A DNA stretch of 64,000 bases, taken from Halobacteriales archaeon SW_5_70_135 (GTDB taxonomy: Archaea; Halobacteriota; Halobacteria; Halobacteriales; SW-7-71-33). A program made the position numbers and the translations under genes. The stretch is from NCBI GenBank assembly GCA_003022865.1, contig PXSK01000036.1:63122-127121 (forward strand), written 5' to 3'. Position 1 is the first letter of the stretch; the number at the start of each line of letters is the position of its first letter. This document shows positions 272 through 57,015 of this stretch, piece after piece. The notes beneath the pieces are model-generated. The model saw only the letters and a program-made list of their open reading frames with translations, was not told where the DNA came from and made no database searches.

Positions 272-766
272 TGTTCAGATCAGCAGCTGCTGATGGAGAC
301 ACTGGTGGTGTGGAGAGCCAGAAAGCCCCCGACGGCTCGCCGACTGCGACTCGCTGCGCTCCTCACTCACTCCGTTCGTTGCGGTGTCCTCGCGCGGTTG
401 CACCGCGCGAGCGGGCCGAGGCGGCTCCGCCGCCTCGCGGCTTACATCGGCTCGCCCGGCGAGCCGCCAGCCCCTTTCAGTCCCACCCGGCCGACGTTTC
501 CCAGGGCGGGACCGAAAGGGGCCGACGTGCTGCGGGAAGCACGGTGATGCAAGCACCATGCTCAACTCGCCGGAGGCGAGTTGGCATCTCAGGAGACTCG
601 TGAGTCTCCTGACGAGTCCGCAAGAGCGAAGCTCTTGCGAGATCCAGCAAATCTTCGATTTGCGCGACAGCGAGCACAGCGAGCGAGGAGCGCAGCGAGC
701 CGCGCAACCGCAGCACGTCGGGGGCTTCCTGGCTGTTGAAGTTAGTTTCGATCGCCAATCTGAACA
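272..766. repeat. Hairpin-array repeat element, copy 1 (MITE-like, non-coding)
   Basis: Perfect 9-bp terminal inverted repeat TGTTCAGAT (272-280) / ATCTGAACA (758-766). Subterminal inverted blocks GCCAGAAAGCCCCCGACG / CGTCGGGGGCTTCCTGGC. The interior is a chain of short perfect hairpins. Long blocks are shared with 46709-47566 and 26751-27432. Track ORFs over it (275..793-, 293..547+, 477..758-) have junk-like Arg/Pro/Ser composition. Confidence 0.8.
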
Positions 767-11649: not shown

Positions 11650-12963
11650 TCACTGTTCGCCGCCGTCGGTCACGACCGTGGTGTCGTCCGGGTCGCCGGT
11701 CTCCTCGTCCGCCGCGTCGGTGGCGGCGGTCGCGAGCCGAGACTGGAACCCGTGGTACTTCGCGACGCCGGTCGCGTCGGCCTGGGCGATGTCGCCGGTG
11801 ACCGACTCCGTGTCGAACGACGCGGCGTCGGCGGCGTAGGTCGCGTACGGCGACTCGCGGCCGACGACGCGGGCCTTGCCGCCCTCGAACCGCACCGTGA
11901 CGGTGCCTGTCACGCGGGACTGCGTGACCTCGATGAACCCTTCGAGAGCGTCCATCAGCGGGGCGTCGAGCAGTCCCTCGTAGGCGGTCTCGGCCCACTC
12001 CTGGTCGACGTGGCGCTTGAACGAGCGCTCGTCGGCGGTGAGCACCAACCCCTCCAGCGCCTCGTGGGCGGTCAACAGCGTCGTCGCGGCGGGGTGTTCG
12101 TAGTTCTCGCGGACCTTCAGCCCGAGCATCCGGTCCTCCATCGTGTCCGTGCGGCCGACGCCGTGAGCGCCGGCGACCTCGTTCAGCGTCTCGACCAGGG
12201 CGACCGGGTCGAGCGCCTCGCCGTCGAGGGCGACGGGGTAGCCGTCCTCGAAGCCGACGGTCACCGTCTCCGTCTCCGTCTCCGTCCCCGTCTCTGTCTC
12301 CCCGTCCGGCGGGGCCGTCCACTCGTAGATCTCCTCACCGGGGACGTACGAGGGGTCCTCGAGGGCGTCGCCCTCGACCGAGCGCGACCACAGGTTCGTG
12401 TCGATCGACCACGCCCCTTCGTTGCCGCCCTCGACGGGGAGGTCGTGGTCGGCGGCGTAGGCCGTCTCCCACTCCCGGGTGAGACCGAGCTCGCGCACCG
12501 GCGCGACCACCTCGAAGTCACCGTCACGCCAGACGGCCTCGAAGCGCAGCTGGTCGTTGCCCTTCCCGGTGCAACCGTGGGCCAGCGCGACACAGTCCTC
12601 GGCGGCAGCGACGTCGCGGACCGCCTCGGCGACGACCGGCCGCGCGAGGGCGGTCCCCAGCGGATACTCCTGGTAGGTGGCGTTCGCGCGGACGGCGTCG
12701 AGACAGTGGTCGGCGAACGCCGACCGAGCGTCGACGACGCGGTGCTCCGTCCCGAGCGCGGCGGCCGTCTCGGCCGCCTCGGCGAGCTCCGCGTCGGGCT
12801 GGCCGACGTCGACGGTGACGCCGATCACCTCGTCGTAGTCATACTCCTGTTCCAGTAGCGGCACGCAGACCGTGGTGTCGAGTCCGCCGCTGAACGCGAG
12901 CGCGACGGACTCCGCGTCGGTGTCAGTGTCAGTGTCAGTGTCGGTGTCAGTAGGTGGTGTCAT
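11650..12963 (-). CDS. argG: Argininosuccinate synthase
   Basis: ALAFSGGLDTTV P-loop-like motif and HGCTGKGNDQLRFE. ATG at 12963 is preferred over the track GTG at 12981. Carries an N-terminal (TD)6 run and an internal ETETGTETETET run encoded by hexanucleotide repeats. Confidence 0.9.
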   Translation of the reverse strand: MTPPTDTDTDTDTDTDAESVALAFSGGLDTTVCVPLLEQEYDYDEVIGVTVDVGQPDAELAEAAETAAALGTEHRVVDARSAFADHCLDAVRANATYQEYPLGTALARPVVAEAVRDVAAAEDCVALAHGCTGKGNDQLRFEAVWRDGDFEVVAPVRELGLTREWETAYAADHDLPVEGGNEGAWSIDTNLWSRSVEGDALEDPSYVPGEEIYEWTAPPDGETETGTETETETVTVGFEDGYPVALDGEALDPVALVETLNEVAGAHGVGRTDTMEDRMLGLKVRENYEHPAATTLLTAHEALEGLVLTADERSFKRHVDQEWAETAYEGLLDAPLMDALEGFIEVTQSRVTGTVTVRFEGGKARVVGRESPYATYAADAASFDTESVTGDIAQADATGVAKYHGFQSRLATAATDAADEETGDPDDTTVVTDGGEQ

Positions 12964-14391: not shown

Positions 14392-14811
14392 TCACTCTGA
14401 GTGATGACTGTGATCCCCTCGTTTGTAAGCACTATACCGGACCATCGTTCTTCCTGTTAGTTGATACGACCACTCTGTAGTCGTTTTCCAACTGAGCTCC
14501 AGTGTCAGACCGATCTCCTCTCCGGACGATAGATCGAACGAACGATCGATCACAGTTCGGTCGGTTTCCCTTTCGAGTATCCTTACGCTGAGGTCGACCT
14601 CGGCCTCGTTCTTCCATTCTGACTCGATCGTTACTCTTACTACTCGGGTGATGGGGGCGCTCAGTCGTGGACGTGGTCTCCGTTCCTGCCGTGGTCGTAC
14701 CGGACGCGTCGACCGTCGTTGGTTCGCCGTTAGAGGAGTCTTCGGACCGATACCGGCACATCCTGCTGCGAGCACGAGTAGTATTATGCTGAGCAGGCGA
14801 TGTCTTCGCAC
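14392..14811 (-). CDS. Putative secreted lipoprotein in the low-GC islet (possibly frame-disrupted)
   Basis: GTG start; signal peptide with lipobox (M)RRHRLLSIILLVLAAGC. The C-terminal 85 aa look protein-like. Residues about 20-55 are Arg/Pro junk, while an alternative frame over about 14655-14746 reads SEDSSNGEPTTVDASGTTTAGTETTSTTE, a typical post-lipobox linker. Confidence 0.5.
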   Translation of the reverse strand: MRRHRLLSIILLVLAAGCAGIGPKTPLTANQRRSTRPVRPRQERRPRPRLSAPITRVVRVTIESEWKNEAEVDLSVRILERETDRTVIDRSFDLSSGEEIGLTLELSWKTTTEWSYQLTGRTMVRYSAYKRGDHSHHSE

Positions 14812-15077
14812 GGCTGCATGCGATATTCTTGCCGATAAGTACTTTCTTCCGCAAAGACACGCCCGTCCGGCCCCAATCAGTCCGTTTCTGACGAGAGACG
14901 ACAGCGAGGGCGGCCGTCCCGAGATCGGGAACGGGGTCGTGGCGCCGGCGAGTGCAATAGAGCGGTACGGACGGTCGTCCCGGAGACGTATACCTGCGGT
15001 CCGTACGCGGGAACGGAAAGCGACGGACGGCGATCGGTGCGGCTGCTCGGCGAGAACTGATGACCTTCGGTCGAGGC

Positions 15078-22291: not shown

Positions 22292-23358
22292 CCGGGGACG
22301 CGCCCGCTCCCCGGCCGGCGACCCGTGCCCGCGGACCCTCGGCAGCGACCGTGCTGTGCGTGCTCGGGGTCTTCGTGGCGGTGCAAGTCGGGGCGCTTTC
22401 GCTGGCGGCGCCGTTCGCCGGCGACGGCGCTGGCGCCGGTGCCGGCGCCGTCGAGAACCCCGGCGACCCCGTCTTCGGCGTGGTGTACCTCGCCGGCGTG
22501 CTCGTAGTCTCGGGCGCGCTGCTCGTCGCGGTGCGACGCGGCGCGACCTGGGTGCTGCGTGGCTTCGCCGTGTTCGCCTCGGGGCTGCTGTCGTGGTTCG
22601 TGCTGGCCTCGCTGCTGCCGGCGCTGGGCTCCGGCGTCGTCGGACCGCTGGTGACGGTCCACGTCCCGGCGACGGTCGGCGCGCTGGCGCTGGTGGTCGC
22701 CCTGCTGGTGCGCCCGGAGTGGTACGTCCTCGACCTCGTCGGGGTGCTGACCGGGGCGGGTGCGGCCGGCCTCGTCGGCGTGACCCTCGACGTGCTCCCG
22801 GTGCTCGTGTTGCTCGTGACGCTGTCGGCCTACGACGCCGTGGCGGTGTACGGCACCGGGCACGTGGGCGCGCTGGCCGGCGGCGCCGTCGAGTCCCGCG
22901 CGCCGGTACTGTTCGTCGTTCCCGGCGACCGCTCCTTCTCCTATCTCCACCGCGACGACAACGACGATGACGACGGTGACGGCGACGGCGACGGCGAGGA
23001 GCGACCGCCGAGACGGCCCGACGGCGGCCGACCGTCCGCGTCGGCGTCGCCGCCCGGCGGCGCGCTGTTCATTGGCATTGGCGACGCGGTGTTGCCGACG
23101 ACGCTGGCGGTCAGCGCCGTCGCCTATCTGCCGGCGCCGCTGTTCGACCTGCCCGGCGTGGCGCTGTCGCTGCCGGCGCTGAGCGCCCTCCTCGGCACGC
23201 TGGCCGGTCTGGGCGTGCTGCTGTGGGCGGGCAGAGGCGGCCGCGCACACGCCGGCCTCCCGCCGCTGAACGGCGGGGCCCTCCTCGGCTATCTCGCCGG
23301 CTCGCTGGCCGCCGGCGTCCCGCTGGCCGAGGCCCTCGGCGTCGCCGCTTACCTCTGA
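22288..23358 (+). CDS. Presenilin / signal-peptide-peptidase-like intramembrane aspartyl protease (A22 family), paralogue 1
   Basis: Multi-pass membrane protein with YD (LSAYDAVAVY), GxGD (GIGDAVLP) and a PAL-like motif (HAGLPPLNGG). Has a long acidic loop, DDNDDDDGDGDGDGEE. ATGA overlap with gar1. Confidence 0.8.
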   Translation: MTGDAPAPRPATRARGPSAATVLCVLGVFVAVQVGALSLAAPFAGDGAGAGAGAVENPGDPVFGVVYLAGVLVVSGALLVAVRRGATWVLRGFAVFASGLLSWFVLASLLPALGSGVVGPLVTVHVPATVGALALVVALLVRPEWYVLDLVGVLTGAGAAGLVGVTLDVLPVLVLLVTLSAYDAVAVYGTGHVGALAGGAVESRAPVLFVVPGDRSFSYLHRDDNDDDDGDGDGDGEERPPRRPDGGRPSASASPPGGALFIGIGDAVLPTTLAVSAVAYLPAPLFDLPGVALSLPALSALLGTLAGLGVLLWAGRGGRAHAGLPPLNGGALLGYLAGSLAAGVPLAEALGVAAYL

Positions 23359-23417
23359 CTCCGATTCCGGGACCCGCGGACGACACGCACTTGTCCCGTC
23401 CCGCCGCAGAGTCGGCC

Positions 23418-24473
23418 GTGAGCGACACGAGAGACGCCGACCGGCGAGAGACGCCGGACGGCGAGGCGGTGGCCGACGTCGACCTCGACGCCGACGGCAG
23501 CCGGTCCGACGCGGGCGTGTACGACGAGCGGGGGGGAGCCACCGGGGAGACGGCGGCAGAGAAGACGTTCGAGCCGCTCCCCGCCGCCGGGATTTTCCTG
23601 CTGTACGCGCTGACGGTCCTCGGCGGGGTGGCGCTCATCGGCCCGTACCGGGCCGCCGGGGTGCGGGCGTTCGAGGACCCCACCGCGCTGTCGAACGTCG
23701 CGCTGATCGTCGCCGAGGTGCTGGTCGCGACGCTGCTGCTGCTGCTCGCCTTCCGCTCCGACCGCGCCGAGGGGGTGGTCCGGCTGGTCGTGCTCGGGGC
23801 CGTCGCCGTGCTCGTCCAGTCGCCCGTCGGCGTGTTGCTGCCGGCGAGCGTGCCCGCGCCGGGGCTGGTCGGGCCGGCCGTCGGTGCGGCCGTCGCCGGC
23901 GTGCTGTGGGTCTACCCGGAGTGGTACGTGATAGACGCCGCGGCGGTCGGCTTCGGCGCCGCCGCCGTCGGACTGTTCGGGGTGAGCCTGTCGCCGCTGC
24001 CGGTAGTCGCCCTGCTGGTCGTGATGGCCGTCTACGACGTCTACTCGGTGTACGTCAGCGAGCACATGCAATCCCTCGGCGGCGGCGTCGTCGGCCTGAA
24101 GCTGCCGATGGTGTTCGTCGTCCCCGTCGACCGGGAGTTCTCGCTGCTGGCGGTCGACGACCTCGCCGACCTCTCCGAGGGGGCGATGCTGCTGGGCGTG
24201 GGCGACGCCGTCTTCCCCGGGATGCTCGCCGCCAGCGCGCTCGCCTTCCTCGACGCGCCCGCCGTCGTCGCCGGCCTGAGCCTCCCCGTCCTGGGCGCGC
24301 TCGCCGGCGCCGCGGTCGGCTTCGTCGCGCTCGAAGTTCTCCTGTTCGCGGTCCGGCGCACCCACGCCGGTCTCCCCGCGCTCAACGGCGGCGTCCTCGC
24401 CGGCTACCTCGCCGGCTCGCTGGCCGCCGGCGTCCCGCTCGTCGAGGCGCTCGGACTCGCGCCGTACCTCTGA
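23418..24473 (+). CDS. Presenilin / signal-peptide-peptidase-like intramembrane aspartyl protease (A22 family), paralogue 2
   Basis: YD (VMAVYDVYSVY), GxGD (GVGDAVFPG), PAL (HAGLPALNGG). The C-terminal 40 aa are nearly identical to paralogue 1. Start is tentatively GTG 23418, since there is no in-frame ATG upstream of the first TM. Confidence 0.75.
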   Translation: MSDTRDADRRETPDGEAVADVDLDADGSRSDAGVYDERGGATGETAAEKTFEPLPAAGIFLLYALTVLGGVALIGPYRAAGVRAFEDPTALSNVALIVAEVLVATLLLLLAFRSDRAEGVVRLVVLGAVAVLVQSPVGVLLPASVPAPGLVGPAVGAAVAGVLWVYPEWYVIDAAAVGFGAAAVGLFGVSLSPLPVVALLVVMAVYDVYSVYVSEHMQSLGGGVVGLKLPMVFVVPVDREFSLLAVDDLADLSEGAMLLGVGDAVFPGMLAASALAFLDAPAVVAGLSLPVLGALAGAAVGFVALEVLLFAVRRTHAGLPALNGGVLAGYLAGSLAAGVPLVEALGLAPYL

Positions 24474-24580
24474 CGTTCCGGAGCGCTCGTCGAGCCGGGA
24501 AACCGGCAGACAGCGACGGCCCAGTTTCACTTTCACCCGGATTGGCGTCGGTTGAAGCAGGCGGCGCTCGTGGTGGCGGT

Positions 24581-26750: not shown

Positions 26751-27432
26751 CAGCAGTTGGTGTGCTTGAAGCGCTCGGCGCACTCATTGCTCATCGCTCT
26801 CGATTCTTCTGACGAGTCCTCCGAAGCCCTCGGCACGCTCTCCTCAGTTGCTTTCGATCCCGTAGTTGCGTCCTTCGAAGGGCGAGGCACGCTCGACGCC
26901 GCTGACTCGCTGCGCTCCTTACTGCGTTGCGGTGCTTACGTCGTCAGCGACGGTCAACCGTGCCTCGCCCTTCGAGTCTATCGGAACGGCGGAGCCGTTC
27001 CGGTCGCCCGAAAATCGCTCAGCGATTTTCGCAGGCCACCAGGTGTATACGGCGGCGAGTACTCCCCATGCCTCCCCGCCCGGTCGGTGAGTGTGCTCGG
27101 TCGGCTCGCCGTTGCTCGCCGGCTCGGCGGTTACACCGCCTCGCTTGGCGGCGCGTGGCGCCGCCCTCTCCTCGCACGTATCGACCGGGCGCAGCCTCGT
27201 TGCAGGGCGCGCGAGCAACGCGCGAGGGCCGAGAGGCGGCTGGGGAGGGCGAGGCTGCGGTGCGGTCGGGCGGGACTGAAAGAGGCTGGCCCGTTCGGGG
27301 TTCGTCGTGACGCAAGCACCGTGCTCAACTCGCCTCCGGCGAGTTGGTATCCAGCAGAACTTCGATTTGCACGACAGCGAAGCGAGGAGCGCAGCGAACG
27401 AGGTGCCCCGAACGGGCCGGGGGCTTTCTGGG
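26751..27432. repeat. Hairpin-array repeat element, copy 2 (degenerate; termini eroded)
   Basis: Shares blocks with copies 1 and 3 in the same order and orientation: CAGCAGTTGGTGTG; GACTCGCTGCGCTCCTTACTGCGTTGCGGTG; GCAAGCACCGTGCTCAACTCGCCTCCGGCGAGTTGG; CTTCGATTTGCACGACAGCGAAGCGAGGAGCGCAGCGA; GGGGGCTTTCTGG. It lacks the ATCTGAACA end. Confidence 0.7.
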
Positions 27433-27540
27433 ACCCCACAGCAGGATCGAGAGAGTCACAGACAACCGAAACCGCCGAACGGGGGGACATTCCAGACCGA
27501 CGCAGGAGAGTCGAGAGCGAACGCGGACGACCGGGTCACC

Positions 27541-46178: not shown

Positions 46179-46577
46179 ATGAGCGAGGGCGCCCTCTCGG
46201 AGCTCCCCGAGAGCTGGACGTTGTGGAGCGAGAGCGAGGACGGCCGCCTCGTCCTCGCCTACCGGCCCGACGTGTTCGACTCCGAGACGTTCCCCGCGCC
46301 CTGTCTCCCGACGCTGTACGTCACTCGCGGCCCCAGGAAGCGACGCCGCCCGCCCGGCGAGCGACCGCGACTCCGCGAGGACTGGCACGTCACTCTCTAC
46401 CTGGAGCCGGAGGTGAGTGCGCCGAGTCGCTCCCGCGGCCGGCGGGACGAGGCGGTCGCCGTCGCCGTCGAGTGGGCCCGCGAGTTCGACCGCGGCGACG
46501 TCGACTACCGCGACCTCTACCGGGTCCCGCGCGAGCGGTATCTCGACCGACTCGACGGGCTAACGGGCCGGGAGTGA
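46179..46577 (+). CDS. Hypothetical protein (132 aa)
   Basis: Track ORF MSEGALSELPESWTLWSESEDGRLVLAYRPDVFDS... with plausible composition. No family recognised. Confidence 0.55.
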   Translation: MSEGALSELPESWTLWSESEDGRLVLAYRPDVFDSETFPAPCLPTLYVTRGPRKRRRPPGERPRLREDWHVTLYLEPEVSAPSRSRGRRDEAVAVAVEWAREFDRGDVDYRDLYRVPRERYLDRLDGLTGRE

Positions 46578-46708
46578 CCGGGCGACGGTCGTCGGGACGC
46601 GACCGGACACCCACACTACGGACGGAGCGGCCGCTCATCGGGCGGGCTCGCGACACGCCCTCTCGCGACCCGTGCCGACGGTCGAACTGTCGTCGGTGCG
46701 GACGGCAG

Positions 46709-47566
46709 TGTTCGGATTAGCAGCTGCCGATGGAGATACTGGAGGTGTGGAGAGCCAGAAAGCCCCCGGCGGCTCACCGGCTGCGACTCGCCGTGCTCCT
46801 CGTCAGTCACTTCGTTCCCTTCTGCGGTGCTTGAGTCGTCGCCAGAAACCTGCGGGTTCTGGCTGGCTCGAAAATCTTCGATTTTCGAACGTCTCGCTCG
46901 GCGAGCCGCCGGCCCCTCTCGGTCCCGCCCTGAGAAACGTCGGCCGGGCGGAATCGAAAGGGGCCGGCGTGCTGCGGGACGCACGACGAAGCGAGCACCA
47001 TGCTCAACTCGCTGGCGGCGGGTTGGCATCTCAGGCGACCCGCGGGTCTCCTGACGAGTCCGCAAGAGGAAGCTCTTGCGAGATCCAGTGAATCTTCGAT
47101 TTGCGCGACAAGCGGGAGAGCGAAGCTCTCCCGGGCAGCGCGGAGGGAACCTCCGCTGACCCTCGGGCTCCGCCCGAGGACAGCCGGGCGGCGGAGCCGC
47201 CCGGCGACAGCGAACGCAGTGAGCGAGGAGCGCAGCGGGAGACTCGACGAGTCTCCCTGGCAGCCGGGCGCTATGCGCCCGGCGACAGAGAGGCGCGTAG
47301 CGCCTCTGGCAACAGGCGGCGGAGCCGCCGGTGACAGCGAGCCGCGCGACCAGCGAGGCGCTACGCGCCTCGGGCAGCCGGCGTTGACGAGAGCGAAGCT
47401 CTCGTGAGCCAATCAGAGTCGGAGGCTCTGATGACGTTCGTCAGAGCTCCGCTCTGACGGGCCAGCCAGAACCCTGCGGGTTCTGGTGACGGCGAAGCCG
47501 CCGGCGACGCAGCACGCCGAGGGGCTTTCTGGCTGTTCAACGCTGTTCCGGTCGCCGATCTGAACA
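46709..47566. repeat. Hairpin-array repeat element, copy 3 (longest; more than 20 consecutive hairpins)
   Basis: Termini are TGTTCGGAT (46709-46717) / ATCTGAACA (47558-47566). It shares left, central and right blocks with copy 1 and carries an extra segment of about 350 bp (about 47105-47500) made of perfect 7-10 bp stems with 3-nt loops. All overlapping track ORFs look non-coding. Confidence 0.8.
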
Positions 47567-47618
47567 GTACCGGTCGCGACACCCCGATGCTTAACCGGGC
47601 GCCCCGCGGAGCACGCGC

Positions 47619-48074
47619 ATGGGTCAGGTCACGCTCATCGGGACTCGTCTCGCCGACGAGGGGCAGGAGTTCGTCTACCGGGGCGAGGCCGCCGGCTGCG
47701 AGGGCTGTCCGTACCGGAGCCAGTGTCTCAACCTCGACGAGGGCGTGAAGTACCGCGTCACGGACGTCCGGGAGAACGCACAGACGCTCGACTGTGCGGT
47801 CCACGACGACGGCGTCACCGCCGTCGAGGTCGAGGCCGTCCCCGTCCGGGCGAACGTCGCCTCGAAGCAGGCCTACGCCGGCAACCGGACCACGCTCCCG
47901 GGTCCCTGTCCGCACGTCGACTGCCCGAGCCACGAGCTCTGTGTCCCCGACGGCGCCGAGATGGGCGCGGAGTACCGGATCGAGGAGGTCGTCGGCGAGC
48001 CGCCACACGAGTTCTGCGCTCTCGACCGCGACCTGACGACGGTGCGGTTCGCCCCGCCGACGGATCAGTCGTAG
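47619..48074 (+). CDS. UPF0179 family protein (conserved archaeal Cys-rich protein)
   Basis: 151 aa; TLIGTRLADEGQEFVYRGEAAGCEGCPYRSQCLNLDEGVKYRVTDVR...LDCAVHDDGV...GPCPHVDCPSHELC matches the UPF0179 pattern as I recall it. Confidence 0.8.
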   Translation: MGQVTLIGTRLADEGQEFVYRGEAAGCEGCPYRSQCLNLDEGVKYRVTDVRENAQTLDCAVHDDGVTAVEVEAVPVRANVASKQAYAGNRTTLPGPCPHVDCPSHELCVPDGAEMGAEYRIEEVVGEPPHEFCALDRDLTTVRFAPPTDQS

Positions 48075-49250: not shown

Positions 49251-49404
49251 CTGCGGGACCTCGACCCGACGTGCAGGAGATCGCCGGAGCGATCGTCTCT
49301 CGTATCACTTGTCGATCGACGCCGACTCCGACACCCACGCTGACACTGACACCGACACCCACACCCACGCCGACACCGACGGACGCCTTTTGAGCCGTGC
49401 GCCC

Positions 49405-55036: not shown

Positions 55037-57015
55037 GCGGCGACGACCCGGCCGACGGACCGCCAGCCGCCGCACCCGGGGCCGCTCCGGAGGCCGACGA
55101 CGCCGGTCCCGACGGCGAGGAAGGTAGTCGGCGGCACACCGGCGCCTCCGGAGAGGACGGCCACGGGAGCAGCGGAAAGAACGAGGACCGCGGAAGCGAC
55201 GAAGAGAGCGAGGACCACAGGAGCGACCGAGAGAGCGAGGACCGCGGGAGCAGCGGAAAGAGCGAGGACCGCAGGAGCGATCGGGAGAGCGACGAGACTG
55301 GCGAGGACGGGGCGGAGACGGCGAGTCGGCGGGGCGTCGAGACCGCGGGACGACGACTCCACCCGCTGTCGGTGCCGTACAGGGCGGTGACGCGGGCGCT
55401 CCGGCCGTCGACGCTTTTGATCGTCGTCACCGCCGTCGGACCGGGGTCGCTCGACCCGCAGTCACTCACCTTCATCGGGCTGTTGCTCGCCGGGCTCGCC
55501 GCCACTTTCGCGTACCAGTACGGCTACTACCGACGGTTCAGGTTCGCCCTGACCGACGACACGCTCGACGTCGCTTCGGGCGTACTCTCGCGGCGCAGTC
55601 GGGAGATACCGCTGCGACGCGTCCAGAACGTCGACGTGGGACAGAACCCGCTCCAGCGGGCGATGGGGATCGCCGCGGTGCGGATCGAGACCGCGGGCGG
55701 CGGCGACACCGAGGCCGTCCTGGAGTATCTCGGCCGAGAGGCCGCCGAACGGCTCCGCGACGACCTCCGGCGAGCCGCCAGGCGAGCGCGGGCGAACGAC
55801 GGCGAGGTTGAGGTCGGGGCCGAGGCCGGGACGGCCGACGAGGCGGAGCCGGGAGTCGACGAGACCGTCGGGGGCGAGGGCGAGAGCGAGAGCGAGCGCG
55901 AGGAGGTGTTCGCGCTGTCGCGCCGGAGCCTCGCCGTGGTCAGTCTGTTCAGCTTCGACGCCGGTGCGGGCGTGATATCGAGCGTCGTGGGCGTTCTCCT
56001 CAGCGGCGGTGACCCCTCGAACCTCGTCGGCGTCGGCCGGGTGCTGGCCGACCTGCCGCTGGGGCCGGTCGAGACGGCCGTCATCGGCGTCGCCGCCGTC
56101 GGCGTGCTCGCCTGGCTGCTGAGCGTCGTGCTCACCGTCGCCCGCTACTACGGCTTCCGGCTGGTCCGCGTCGACGAGGGACTGGAGTACGAGCGCGGAC
56201 TCGTCCAGCAGTACTCCGGCACCATTCCCGTCGAGAAGGTCCAGACCGTCTCGCTACGGTCGGACCTGGTTCACCGCCGACTCGGCTATCTCGCCGTCGC
56301 CGTCGAGACGGCCGGCTACTCGCCGGGCAGCGAGCGCAGCGCCCGCCAGCTCGCCGTGCCGCTCGCCCCGCGCGCCGAGGCGCTGCGGGTGGCTCGTTCC
56401 GTCGAGCCGTTCGCTGTCGACGACGACGAGGACGACGCGGAGGCGACGTTCGGACTGGAGCGTCCGCCCCGGCGGGCGCGACGCCGGTACGTCGTCCGGT
56501 TCGCGCTGGCCGTCCTCGCGCTCACGGGACTGGCGGCCGTCGCGCTCGGACTGCTGACTGCCAGGGGTGTCGGCCCGGGACTGGCGGTCGACCGTCGCCT
56601 GCTCGCGGCGCCGCTGGCGGCGCTGCTGCTGACGCCGGTCGCGGCACACCGCCGCTGGCGGAGTCGCGGACACGCCGCCGGACCCGAGCATTTCCTCGCC
56701 CGGACCGGGTACTGGCGGCGCGTCACTCGAGTCGTGCCGTACTACCGCGTGCAGACGGTGATCGAGTCTCGCACGCCGTTCCAGCGGCGGCGACGTCTCG
56801 CCAGCGTCACCGCCGACACCGCTTCCTCGGCCAGCCTGCTCGGCGGCGAGGCCGTCGCCCTCGACGTCGACGTCGACCGGGCCGTCGCCCTCCGGGAACG
56901 TCTCCGGACCGAACTCGACGGGGCCATCGGGGCGCGAGCGAGCGACCGGGAGCGACCGGAGGAGGCGCGGAACGCCGACGGCGACGACCCCGCCGGCGGT
57001 CAGACGTCGGGGTGA
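55033..57015 (+). CDS. YdbT-like membrane protein with three bPH_2 domains and an N-terminal Ser/Glu/Asp/Arg repeat region
   Basis: GTG 55033 overlaps the ydbS stop (GTGA). The motif is repeated (IPLRRVQNVDVGQNPLQRAMG; IPVEKVQTVSLRSDLVHRRLG; VVPYYRVQTVIESRTPFQRRRR). The N-terminus reads GSSGKNEDRGSDEESEDHRSDRESEDRGSSGKSEDRRSDRESDE. Confidence 0.8.
   Translation: MSGDDPADGPPAAAPGAAPEADDAGPDGEEGSRRHTGASGEDGHGSSGKNEDRGSDEESEDHRSDRESEDRGSSGKSEDRRSDRESDETGEDGAETASRRGVETAGRRLHPLSVPYRAVTRALRPSTLLIVVTAVGPGSLDPQSLTFIGLLLAGLAATFAYQYGYYRRFRFALTDDTLDVASGVLSRRSREIPLRRVQNVDVGQNPLQRAMGIAAVRIETAGGGDTEAVLEYLGREAAERLRDDLRRAARRARANDGEVEVGAEAGTADEAEPGVDETVGGEGESESEREEVFALSRRSLAVVSLFSFDAGAGVISSVVGVLLSGGDPSNLVGVGRVLADLPLGPVETAVIGVAAVGVLAWLLSVVLTVARYYGFRLVRVDEGLEYERGLVQQYSGTIPVEKVQTVSLRSDLVHRRLGYLAVAVETAGYSPGSERSARQLAVPLAPRAEALRVARSVEPFAVDDDEDDAEATFGLERPPRRARRRYVVRFALAVLALTGLAAVALGLLTARGVGPGLAVDRRLLAAPLAALLLTPVAAHRRWRSRGHAAGPEHFLARTGYWRRVTRVVPYYRVQTVIESRTPFQRRRRLASVTADTASSASLLGGEAVALDVDVDRAVALRERLRTELDGAIGARASDRERPEEARNADGDDPAGGQTSG

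Follow-up and report, generated by a model that had tools for sequence, protein, structure and literature searches.

We examined a stretch of 64,000 nucleotides from Halobacteriales archaeon SW_5_70_135 (contig PXSK01000036.1, positions 63,122 to 127,121), referred to here as the window, in which an initial annotation had singled out a run of some 14 back-to-back stem-loops at 47105 to 47500. The window has a G+C content of ~72% and carries typical haloarchaeal genes (DUF5820, UPF0179, OCD, and FolC-FolP). The stem-loops lie between the DUF5820 gene (46179 to 46577) and the UPF0179 gene (47619 to 48074), both on the plus strand, within an 862-nt element (46707 to 47568) that we call copy B. 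With high confidence, we regard them not as a free-standing hairpin array but as a variable region that has expanded within one unit of a mobile element, itself non-autonomous and built of nested palindromes.

Copy B and its hairpin array

Two near-identical strains carry an empty site. In their flanking sequences (98% identity in locus L029 and 97% in L028), the site reads ...ccggacgtcgggc|accggtcgcgac..., whereas the window reads ...cggacggc|AGTGTTCGGAT...ATCTGAACAGT|accggtcgcgac; positions 46707 to 47568 therefore represent an insertion. In a more distant relative (L030), just 70 nt separate the DUF5820 and UPF0179 genes. Copy B ends in imperfect terminal inverted repeats of 9 to 11 bp, with AGTGTTCGGAT on the left (46707 to 46717, plus strand) pairing with ATCTGAACAGT on the right (47558 to 47568, plus strand). 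These outer ends recur in a second copy in the window, copy A, and in loci L043, L065, L128, L143, and L116. An inner inverted repeat (AACAGCCAGAAAGCCCCCG/CGGGGCTTTCTGGCTGTT) forms a closing stem whose 5′ arm (AGCCAGAAAGCCCCCG; 46753 to 46768) and 3′ arm (...GAGGGGCTTTCTGGCT; 47519 to 47534), both given on the plus strand, covary across the family to which the element belongs.

A short distance downstream of the right end of copy B is the TTAA promoter box of UPF0179. This box (CTTAAC; 47590 to 47595) lies ~25 to 30 nt upstream of the start codon and is conserved in L029, L030, and L031; as it is found ~20 nt downstream of the element, the probable UPF0179 promoter has been left intact. The neighborhood of the insertion is itself indel-prone. 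About 45 nt of the left flank (46650 to 46706), whose contents include direct repeats of CTCGCGAC and a CCGACG...CGTCGG hairpin, are missing from the empty-site strain L029. At the same spot between the two genes, an 85% relative (L031:1690-1770) is devoid of the element but has a small hairpin cluster, in which GGGAGAC-gccacgg-GTCTCC is followed by a tandem duplicate of AGAGGGAGGCGCTACGGGCCTCC and the stem is similar to CGAGGCGC-tac-GCGCCTCG of the window. In L028 (positions 1 to 1500 of JGI contig Ga0136447_1002686), lower-G+C, bacterial-type dnaA/dnaN sequence is fused to the haloarchaeal locus, probably through chimeric assembly.

Copy B contains two units in opposite orientations. The left unit (46753 to 46924) has its folding orientation on the minus strand, matches our covariance model of the unit, R1, at 49.5 bits (E = 3e-7), and has inserted hairpins of its own (e.g., 46868 to 46888). 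A long imperfect central hairpin (GGCCCCTCTCGGTCCCGCCC...GGGCGGAATCGAAAGGGGCC; 46907 to 46969) joins it to the right unit (46951 to 47534), which folds on the plus strand and was recognized by alignment with copy A, with a diverged copy in the window (copy 2), and with locus L062. The array lies on the folding strand of this right unit and enlarges it roughly five-fold, which is why the covariance model misses it. Four scaffold hairpins of this unit (47005 to 47105, plus strand) recur in L062 and in the other two window copies: CAACTCGC-tggc-GCGGGTTG (containing one T·G pair), TCAGGCGACCCG/CGGGTCTCCTGA, CGCAAGAG-gaag-CTCTTGCG, and GAATC-ttc-GATTT.

The array itself falls into three blocks on the plus strand, which are insertions relative to copy A and have pieces of the conserved core between them. 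Block 1 (47113 to 47205) has four hairpins (loops GAA, GAA, TCC, and GGA) and the direct repeat GCGACA at its bounds. A conserved module core, GACAGCGAACGCAGTGAGCGAGGAGCGCAGC (47206 to 47236, plus strand), which matches the family motif GAGGAGCGCAGCGAG, separates it from block 2 (47237 to 47332), again with four hairpins (loops GAC, TAT, GTA, and GGA). Between blocks 2 and 3 is a scaffold remnant, GACAGCGAGCCGCGCGACCAG (47333 to 47353, plus strand), aligning with positions 697 to 712 of copy A, and block 3 (47354 to 47505) comprises five to six hairpins (loops TAC, GAA, GGA, TCC, TGC, and AAGC). Each block is edged by a short direct repeat (GCGACA, CAGC, or GCGAC). The initial annotation had already described an expansion in this copy that another copy in the window lacks, and copy A (270 to 768; 499 nt) indeed has the same scaffold minus the three inserted blocks.

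A hairpin census bears out the run of stem-loops. Between 47100 and 47500, there are 12 perfect hairpins (stem of ≥7 bp and loop of ≤7 nt), against 0.6 on average (at most 5) in 500 dinucleotide-preserving shuffles and ~1 per 400 nt in the remainder of the window. When isolated mismatches are tolerated, 13 adjacent hairpins tile positions 47113 to 47505 with 110 Watson-Crick pairs, 2 T·G pairs, and 3 other mismatches. The spacers between them measure 1 to 31 nt, and G(A/G)CAGC is the pattern from which several short ones (ggcagc, gacag, tggca, and ggca) vary. When the array is folded as single-stranded DNA, it reaches −156.9 kcal/mol on the plus strand (z = −10.3) and −149.2 kcal/mol on the minus strand (z = −9.4). 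A separately assembled metagenome (L027) has the identical segment from 47181 to 47571, so the array cannot be put down to misassembly. Whether the stems deserve to be called perfect depends on the definition, however: 12 are so by the census, but stems extended beyond the first mismatch are ~4% non-Watson-Crick, like the other stems of the family. Some hairpins are also better parsed with other loops, with GGGAGACTCG-A-CGAGTCTCCC becoming 9 bp and a GAC loop, CCTCGGG-CTCCG-CCCGAGG becoming 8 bp and a TCC loop, and ATCAGAG-tcggagg-CTCTGAT becoming 9 bp (including one T·G) and a GGA loop.

The loops are strongly biased in sequence. Eleven of the 13 three-nucleotide loops in the array are G-N-A (seven) or its complement T-N-C (four). 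Among triloop hairpins, 19/24 inside the three elements of the window belong to these two classes, compared to 6/59 outside (P = 2e-9). A G-N-A triloop closed by a C-G pair (C-GNA-G) is a hyper-stable mini-hairpin motif of DNA, best known from GCGAAGC and associated with the work of Hirao and colleagues and of the Bevilacqua lab. Judged by sequence, the loops of the array and of the family appear to conform to it. The repetition of GCGAAGC that had first drawn attention holds for the array, which contains three instances, but the bare heptamer is not enriched across the window (20 observed versus 18 expected, including those three).

A haloarchaeal family of covarying units

All three copies in the window share a common scaffold and are expanded at different internal places. 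The units of copy A lie at 316 to 482 (minus) and 633 to 734 (plus), and this copy has seven perfect hairpins; copy 2 (~26872 to 27433), with units at 26872 to 26977 (minus) and 27274 to 27433 (plus), is expanded in its central region instead. R1 finds two divergently oriented units per copy, except for the undetected right unit of copy B.

Beyond the window, a metagenome scan with the 5′ motif yielded at least 120 loci, and a BLAST search with a typical member against named plasmids gave 58 records from ~25 haloarchaeal genera, including Haloferax volcanii pHV4. Among the cultured carriers are H. volcanii (pHV4, 14,789 to 14,910), Halobaculum roseum (CP082287, 39,372 to 39,495), Natrinema, and Haladaptatus. 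The canonical member is a foldback of ~255 nt with two inverted units of ~110 nt, arranged as inner inverted repeat (AGCNNGAAAGCCCCCG...CGGGGCTTTCNNGCT), left unit, central hairpin (GGCCCCTTTCAGTCCCRCCC...), and right unit; in the conserved core, the right unit is the reverse complement of the left (CTCGCTGCGCTCCTC...TGCGGTGCTTRCGTCG versus GACGCAAGCACCGC...GAGGAGCGCAGCGAG). Most of the 48 elements that we delimited measure 240 to 330 nt and contain zero to two perfect hairpins. The outliers are the window copies, with 7 hairpins in 419 nt and 14 hairpins in 782 nt (lengths between the inner repeats). Inserts of a like kind elsewhere (L144, L073, L048, L057, L062, L108, L120, and L126) reach at most four to six hairpins. 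There are also single-unit members (L035, of 107 nt, L133, L093, and L084) of 107 to 176 nt with inverted terminal repeats of 16 to 19 bp.

Some members show further repeats or insertions. In L037, L062, L077, and L121, tandem 45-nt repeats, each starting with a copy of the inner inverted repeat (AGCGTGAAAGCCCCTGCAGGAGTGATCGTGACCGCAACCCCAAAC), occur on both flanks of the element (for example, in the 90 nt upstream of the L037 element). L126 (5050 to 5470) has two-hairpin inserts within conserved parts of the unit, one in the 5′ strand of the outer stem and the other in the central hairpin. The latter insert has the direct repeat TCAGT on its flanks, a hint that a short duplication may accompany the insertion of hairpin pairs.

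Rfam gave no match for the whole window at gathering thresholds and only chance-level matches for copies A and B at an E value of ≤10; a hammerhead-like string, CTGACGAG, was dismissed at 14.5 bits against a threshold of 48.5. Viral contigs scanned with the 5′ motif had no match, and a lineage-specific motif gave only chance matches in unrelated bacteria (L001 to L025) among species-representative genomes. No recurrent neighbor protein was seen among the 120 loci listed, where the neighbors are ordinary housekeeping genes. A GC3-based call of the orientation of flanking genes was wrong at copy B, where the orientation is known, and its result was discarded. Literature searches by keyword (MITE/haloarchaea, REPIN/archaea, and palindromic repeats) and by sequence string returned no description of the family. 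We are highly confident that the family is widespread in haloarchaea, and it is apparently undescribed.

To characterize the unit, we aligned 85 units in one orientation, for which the consensus structure has 32 pairs. Paired bases occupy 95.6% of the alignment cells, compared to 79% in shuffled alignments and 35 to 48% when partners are slid. Double changes occur at 18 of the 32 pairs and in 399 cells, against 109 in shuffles, a count reached by none of 500 shuffles. The outer stem of 12 to 15 bp has 83 distinct arm sequences among 93 half-elements with pairing kept, and the conserved internal-loop core of the unit is GCAAGCACC / GGAGCGCAGC. The mismatches are also asymmetric between strands: in the folding orientation, there are ~86 G·U-type cells and ~20 A·C cells, while the opposite orientation has 33 A·C and 3 G·T mismatches. 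The unit is thus a shape under selection with a preferred strand.

The loops follow the same orientation. Among 148 distinct units read in the folding orientation, hairpins with a stem of ≥6 bp have 15 G-N-A triloops, 1 T-N-C, and 7 others, and GNRA and UNCG do not occur among the 16 tetraloop hairpins. In four genomes, the loops of one homologous hairpin, CGAGGCGC-N3-GCGCCTCG, are GCA, GGA, GAA, and GAA, so that only the base between the constant G and A varies. Structured RNAs favor GNRA and UNCG tetraloops, and the combination of C-GNA-G loops with the absence of these tetraloops tilts the balance towards single-stranded DNA.

On plasmids, a single unit stands at a conserved position, 480 to 650 nt upstream of a gene for a conserved protein of ~290 amino acids, in at least 14 named replicons of at least 10 genera. 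This protein combines an acidic, low-complexity N terminus with an oligonucleotide-binding (OB) fold like that of single-stranded-DNA-binding protein (SSB) or RPA, is 80 to 95% identical across genera, and is encoded in 179 plasmid records. The folding strand of the unit is always the template strand of the OB-fold gene, and the entire ~620-nt upstream region is conserved and hairpin-rich (e.g., L026:2516-3116, L152, L153 to L156, and NZ_CP082287 39372 to 40916). In H. volcanii pHV4, ISHvo9 interrupts this region. The geometry seems reminiscent of the ssb genes that lie behind single-stranded-DNA signals on bacterial conjugative plasmids. The OB-fold protein was rejected as a catalytic partner of the element, as it lacks a nuclease or transposase domain and neither the window nor the metagenome loci encode a homologue.

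Homologous hairpins and turnover of the array

At homologous positions across genomes, spacers are kept, stems are altered on both arms, and loops drift. One such position reads CGAGGCGTC-tcc-GACGCCTCG, CGAGGCGGC-tcc-GCCGCCTCG, or CGAGGCGC-gta-GCGCCTCG, and a paired substitution elsewhere turns GCAAATC..GATTTGC into GGAAATC..GATTTCC. Loops differed in 27 of the 37 homologous comparisons, in six cases between identical stems. For instance, the loop carried by ACGGCGCC is ttc in one genome but gga in a second, and an exact loop flip separates CAACTCGCC-gga-GGCGAGTTG in copy A from CAACTCGCC-tcc-GGCGAGTTG in copy 2. Selection on structure, for which the initial annotation had argued, is supported by this maintenance of pairing through changes on two arms while loops drift or flip and by the massive covariation of the unit. 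Free decay of the stems, which would have spoken against it, is not what we see.

The array also differs between strains. In the strain of L027, which is 99.7% identical over 2 kb, block 1 consists of two different hairpins instead of the four of the window. The homologous first and last hairpins differ at their tips only: the first is GGGAGA[GC-gaa-GC]TCTCCC versus GGGAGA[CTC-cac-GAG]TCTCCC, and the last is GCCGGGCG[GC-gga-GC]CGCCCGGC versus GCCGGGCG[C-tac-G]CGCCCGGC. Copy 2 of the same strain (L157, within a 37-kb contig) has one difference in ~1 kb (27127 G>A). With block 1 changed, in a variant that lies at a contig end, and copy 2 nearly unchanged, the array appears to be a local hot spot. 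Hairpin number changes along with stems and loops, and we conclude with high confidence that the array hairpins are modular, structurally conserved, and gained or lost between strains.

Several hairpins have recognizable relatives. Positions 47187 to 47213, a hairpin with its GACAGCGA spacer, resemble 47315 to 47340 (93%), positions 47465 to 47486 resemble 46841 to 46862 (95%), and block 1 of L027 resembles block 2 of the window. Two pairs of hairpins, 47412 to 47432 with 47439 to 47459 and 47289 to 47307 with 47354 to 47372, are near-inverted copies of each other. Tandem Repeats Finder detected no regular periodicity in the element, which suggests that growth was piecemeal, with no recent tandem burst. 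The earlier contention that the array arose by something other than plain duplication was too strong, given at least three hairpin (plus spacer) cassettes that are recognizable duplicates, and no dedicated hairpin-templating mechanism is needed to explain the perfect stems.

Other repeats occur in the window. Four to five tandem 27-nt repeats (GAGGACCGCGGAAGCGACGAAGAGAGC-like) at 55156 to 55295 presumably encode an acidic 9-residue repeat, and an inverted hexanucleotide-type repeat, (GTGTCA/GTGTCG)n, at 12915 to 12951 and 49345 to 49381 (84% complementary) probably codes for an Asp/Thr-rich linker. A 118-nt direct repeat (23242 to 23359 and 24357 to 24474) is 84% identical over copies 1.1 kb apart.

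Nature of the element and comparison with known systems

The closest known kinds of elements are the bacterial repetitive extragenic palindromic (REP) doublets (REPINs) and mosaic elements (BIMEs), the small mobile repeats (SMRs) of Haloquadratum, and foldback transposable elements of the miniature inverted-repeat type (MITEs); full membership in any of them is not established. REP, REPIN, and BIME elements are mobilized by RAYT, an IS200-like tyrosine HUH transposase (PMC3116915, PMC3337134, PMC3733652). They share with the haloarchaeal element a noncoding, GC-rich, extragenic, palindromic nature, a replicating unit made up of two hairpin-forming units in inverted order, mosaic clusters in which hairpin orientation alternates, the want of a transposase of their own, and vertical persistence in abundance, and they too probably work as hairpins of single-stranded DNA that are specific to one strand. 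Canonical members and each of the three copies in the window show the doublet arrangement, with inverted units around a central hairpin. The haloarchaeal unit differs in its archaeal host, its length (~110 nt with a conserved core versus 20 to 40 nt), its outer inverted repeats, and its arrays, in which the stems differ instead of repeating a single REP. No RAYT-like gene was seen beside the elements in the 120 loci listed or near the window copies. A GTAG/CGTC tag at palindrome ends is not general either, as the array hairpins begin with CGAG, CGGG, GCCG, GGGA, etc., and one begins with CGTC.

The SMRs of Haloquadratum walsbyi are ~80 to 300 bp long overall and ~105 to 120 bp (~110 bp) in three families (HqIRS42/43/55); they are present in many copies with prominent inverted terminal repeats, lack both a target duplication and a related transposon, and have an unknown mode of mobilization (PMC3119063). 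Compared by description, they agree with our family in their haloarchaeal host, in size with the single-unit members (107 nt in L035), in their prominent inverted terminal repeats and many copies, and in the lack of a target duplication (at copy B) and of a transposase. Differences lie in the host genome of SMRs (48% G+C), in their reported insertion into PATE/IS605 palindromes, and in the fact that no covarying stems, two-unit foldbacks, or hairpin arrays have been reported for them. Like foldback MITEs, our elements are small (499 to 862 nt in the window and canonically ~255 nt), noncoding, multicopy (three copies in 64 kb), and intergenic, with terminal inverted repeats and insertion polymorphism between strains. 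Unlike them, they show no target-site duplication at the one site compared and no parent insertion sequence (IS) with matching ends near the 120 loci listed, and the internal stems of their arms differ and yet are each self-complementary, which is unexpected under a simple model of long terminal inverted repeats.

Single-strand initiation sites (ssi) and single-stranded promoters (Frpo) occur near ssb genes on bacterial conjugative plasmids. They may be likened to our unit in their C-GNA-G triloop caps, their strand-specific folded DNA, and the location of the unit upstream of an SSB-like gene on haloarchaeal plasmids. The likeness is one of structure and position, and the chromosomal haloarchaeal copies differ in not lying beside an SSB-like gene. 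DNA transfer in haloarchaea is not known to proceed in single-stranded form.

We can sketch, with moderate to low confidence, how such an element might work. The ~110-nt unit would fold on one strand into a long variable stem around the conserved core plus a small hairpin capped by C-GNA-G. Two inverted units around a central hairpin give the ~255-nt foldback, in which the inverted pair provides each DNA strand with one correctly oriented unit. The working form would be single-stranded DNA that becomes accessible when the element is replicated or moves, and a trans-acting factor encoded elsewhere would recognize the unit by its shape. Extra mini-hairpins would gather at tolerant places, namely in the variable loop and at junctions that follow GCAGC/GCGAC motifs, arising through duplication, and sometimes inversion, of hairpin (plus spacer) cassettes with direct repeats of 4 to 6 nt at their bounds. 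The duplicated hairpins would then diverge under selection for pairing, fastest at loops and tips, and copy B, with 13 hairpins in three blocks, is the extreme case. For the reading as a whole, namely a REPIN-, MITE-, or SMR-like element with single-stranded DNA units, a factor acting in trans, and an array grown by cassette duplication, we see an even chance.

Several observations weigh against this reading. Loop orientation inside the array is mixed (7 GNA and 4 TNC), and both array strands fold almost equally well. G·U-type wobbles at fixed positions (e.g., in 33/85 units at one pair) are equally typical of RNA, and the tolerance of wobbles fits RNA at least as well as DNA. No target-site duplication was seen at copy B in the one comparison of filled and empty sites (...ggc|element|accggtc...), and no transposase or other partner was found beside the elements in the 120 loci listed. 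The duplication history is inferred from three cassette pairs, without tandem periodicity, the short direct repeats at block edges could be due to chance in a low-complexity, GC-rich context, and the L027 variant of block 1 is located at the end of a contig.

DNA or RNA is the question that separates this reading from its main rival, in which the unit is a structured noncoding RNA gene transcribed in the folding orientation, i.e., outwards from the center of the element, the array is an RNA expansion segment, and what moves is a selfish RNA gene or a MITE carrying it. The very strong covariation with many G·U and few A·C cells in one orientation, an internal-loop core like a protein-binding RNA motif, and the conserved single copies at a syntenic plasmid position all speak for such a gene. 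It sits less well with loops that are nearly all three-nucleotide C-GNA-G caps, a hyper-stable DNA motif, in the absence of GNRA and UNCG, with a two-fold symmetry that would demand divergent promoters in the GC-rich central hairpin, where none is evident by reading, and with the lack of an Rfam match. We consider an RNA gene possible but unlikely. The function as single-stranded DNA proposed by the initial annotation survives in spirit as the more probable one, through loop chemistry, strand preference, and a mobile host. Less probable still is that the hairpins are functionless by-products of palindrome-prone replication errors, with template switching or snap-back synthesis perfecting quasi-palindromes in tolerated MITE junk. 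Such errors could leave direct repeats of 4 to 6 nt at block bounds, hairpins that are flipped or inverted duplicates of one another, highly variable tips, and the turnover of one block between near-identical strains. However, the same hairpins occur at homologous positions across genomes with conserved spacers, the loop G and A are fixed around a variable middle base with a 15:1 orientation bias, and wobble mismatches are strand-asymmetric; a pure mutational process would not yield these orientation biases, which counts against this explanation.

We also considered known mobile systems and coding sequence. A derivative of an IS200/IS605-type element (palindrome-associated transposable element [PATE]), a TnpB guide-RNA scaffold, or an IS110 bridge-RNA region might be suspected because PATEs, with their subterminal palindromes, abound in haloarchaea (PMC3119063) and because the H. 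volcanii unit lies 390 nt upstream of the ISHvo9 (IS110) transposase gene. Yet the terminal inverted repeats and the two units on opposite strands are unlike IS200/IS605 ends, the published end tables of PATE/IS605 elements contain no motif of our element, and no tnpA, tnpB, or IS110 gene recurs near the 120 loci listed; we rejected a PATE/IS605 identity on these grounds. The bridge-RNA region was rejected as well, as adjacency to ISHvo9 is confined to H. volcanii and the unit folds on the antisense strand. Five other plasmids have the same region as H. volcanii but without ISHvo9, which identifies ISHvo9 as a secondary insertion. A relationship to any of these IS groups therefore seems very improbable. 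A coding or coding-derived origin of the palindrome-rich sequence, which would have undone the case for structure, can practically be dismissed: long open reading frames (ORFs) overlap the array on both strands, as they do everywhere in this 72% G+C genome, but the three overlapping ORFs have no Pfam match, the segment lies inside a noncoding insertion that sister strains are missing, and the changes are whole-hairpin indels and paired substitutions rather than codon-wise.

Going beyond the single-stranded DNA reading, we tentatively suggest, as a bolder and rather doubtful extension, that the unit is a previously unrecognized strand-specific single-stranded DNA signal, which in archaea would correspond to REP/RAYT substrates or to the ssi/Frpo sites of plasmids. 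Ancestrally located upstream of the plasmid SSB-like gene, it might have been turned into a self-spreading foldback, and the arrays could be evolving C-GNA-G expansion segments that are tolerated or used by a hairpin-recognizing enzyme.

If our interpretation is correct, an abundant, cross-genus haloarchaeal family of shape-selected DNA (or RNA) elements has escaped annotation, a task for which covariance model R1 could serve. The family would offer a practical explanation of contig breaks and "hypothetical ORFs" in high-GC haloarchaeal assemblies, as well as a natural experiment on the gain, flipping, and kept pairing of hairpins. It may also represent the first archaeal analogue of the REPIN/RAYT relationship or of plasmid single-stranded-DNA signals.

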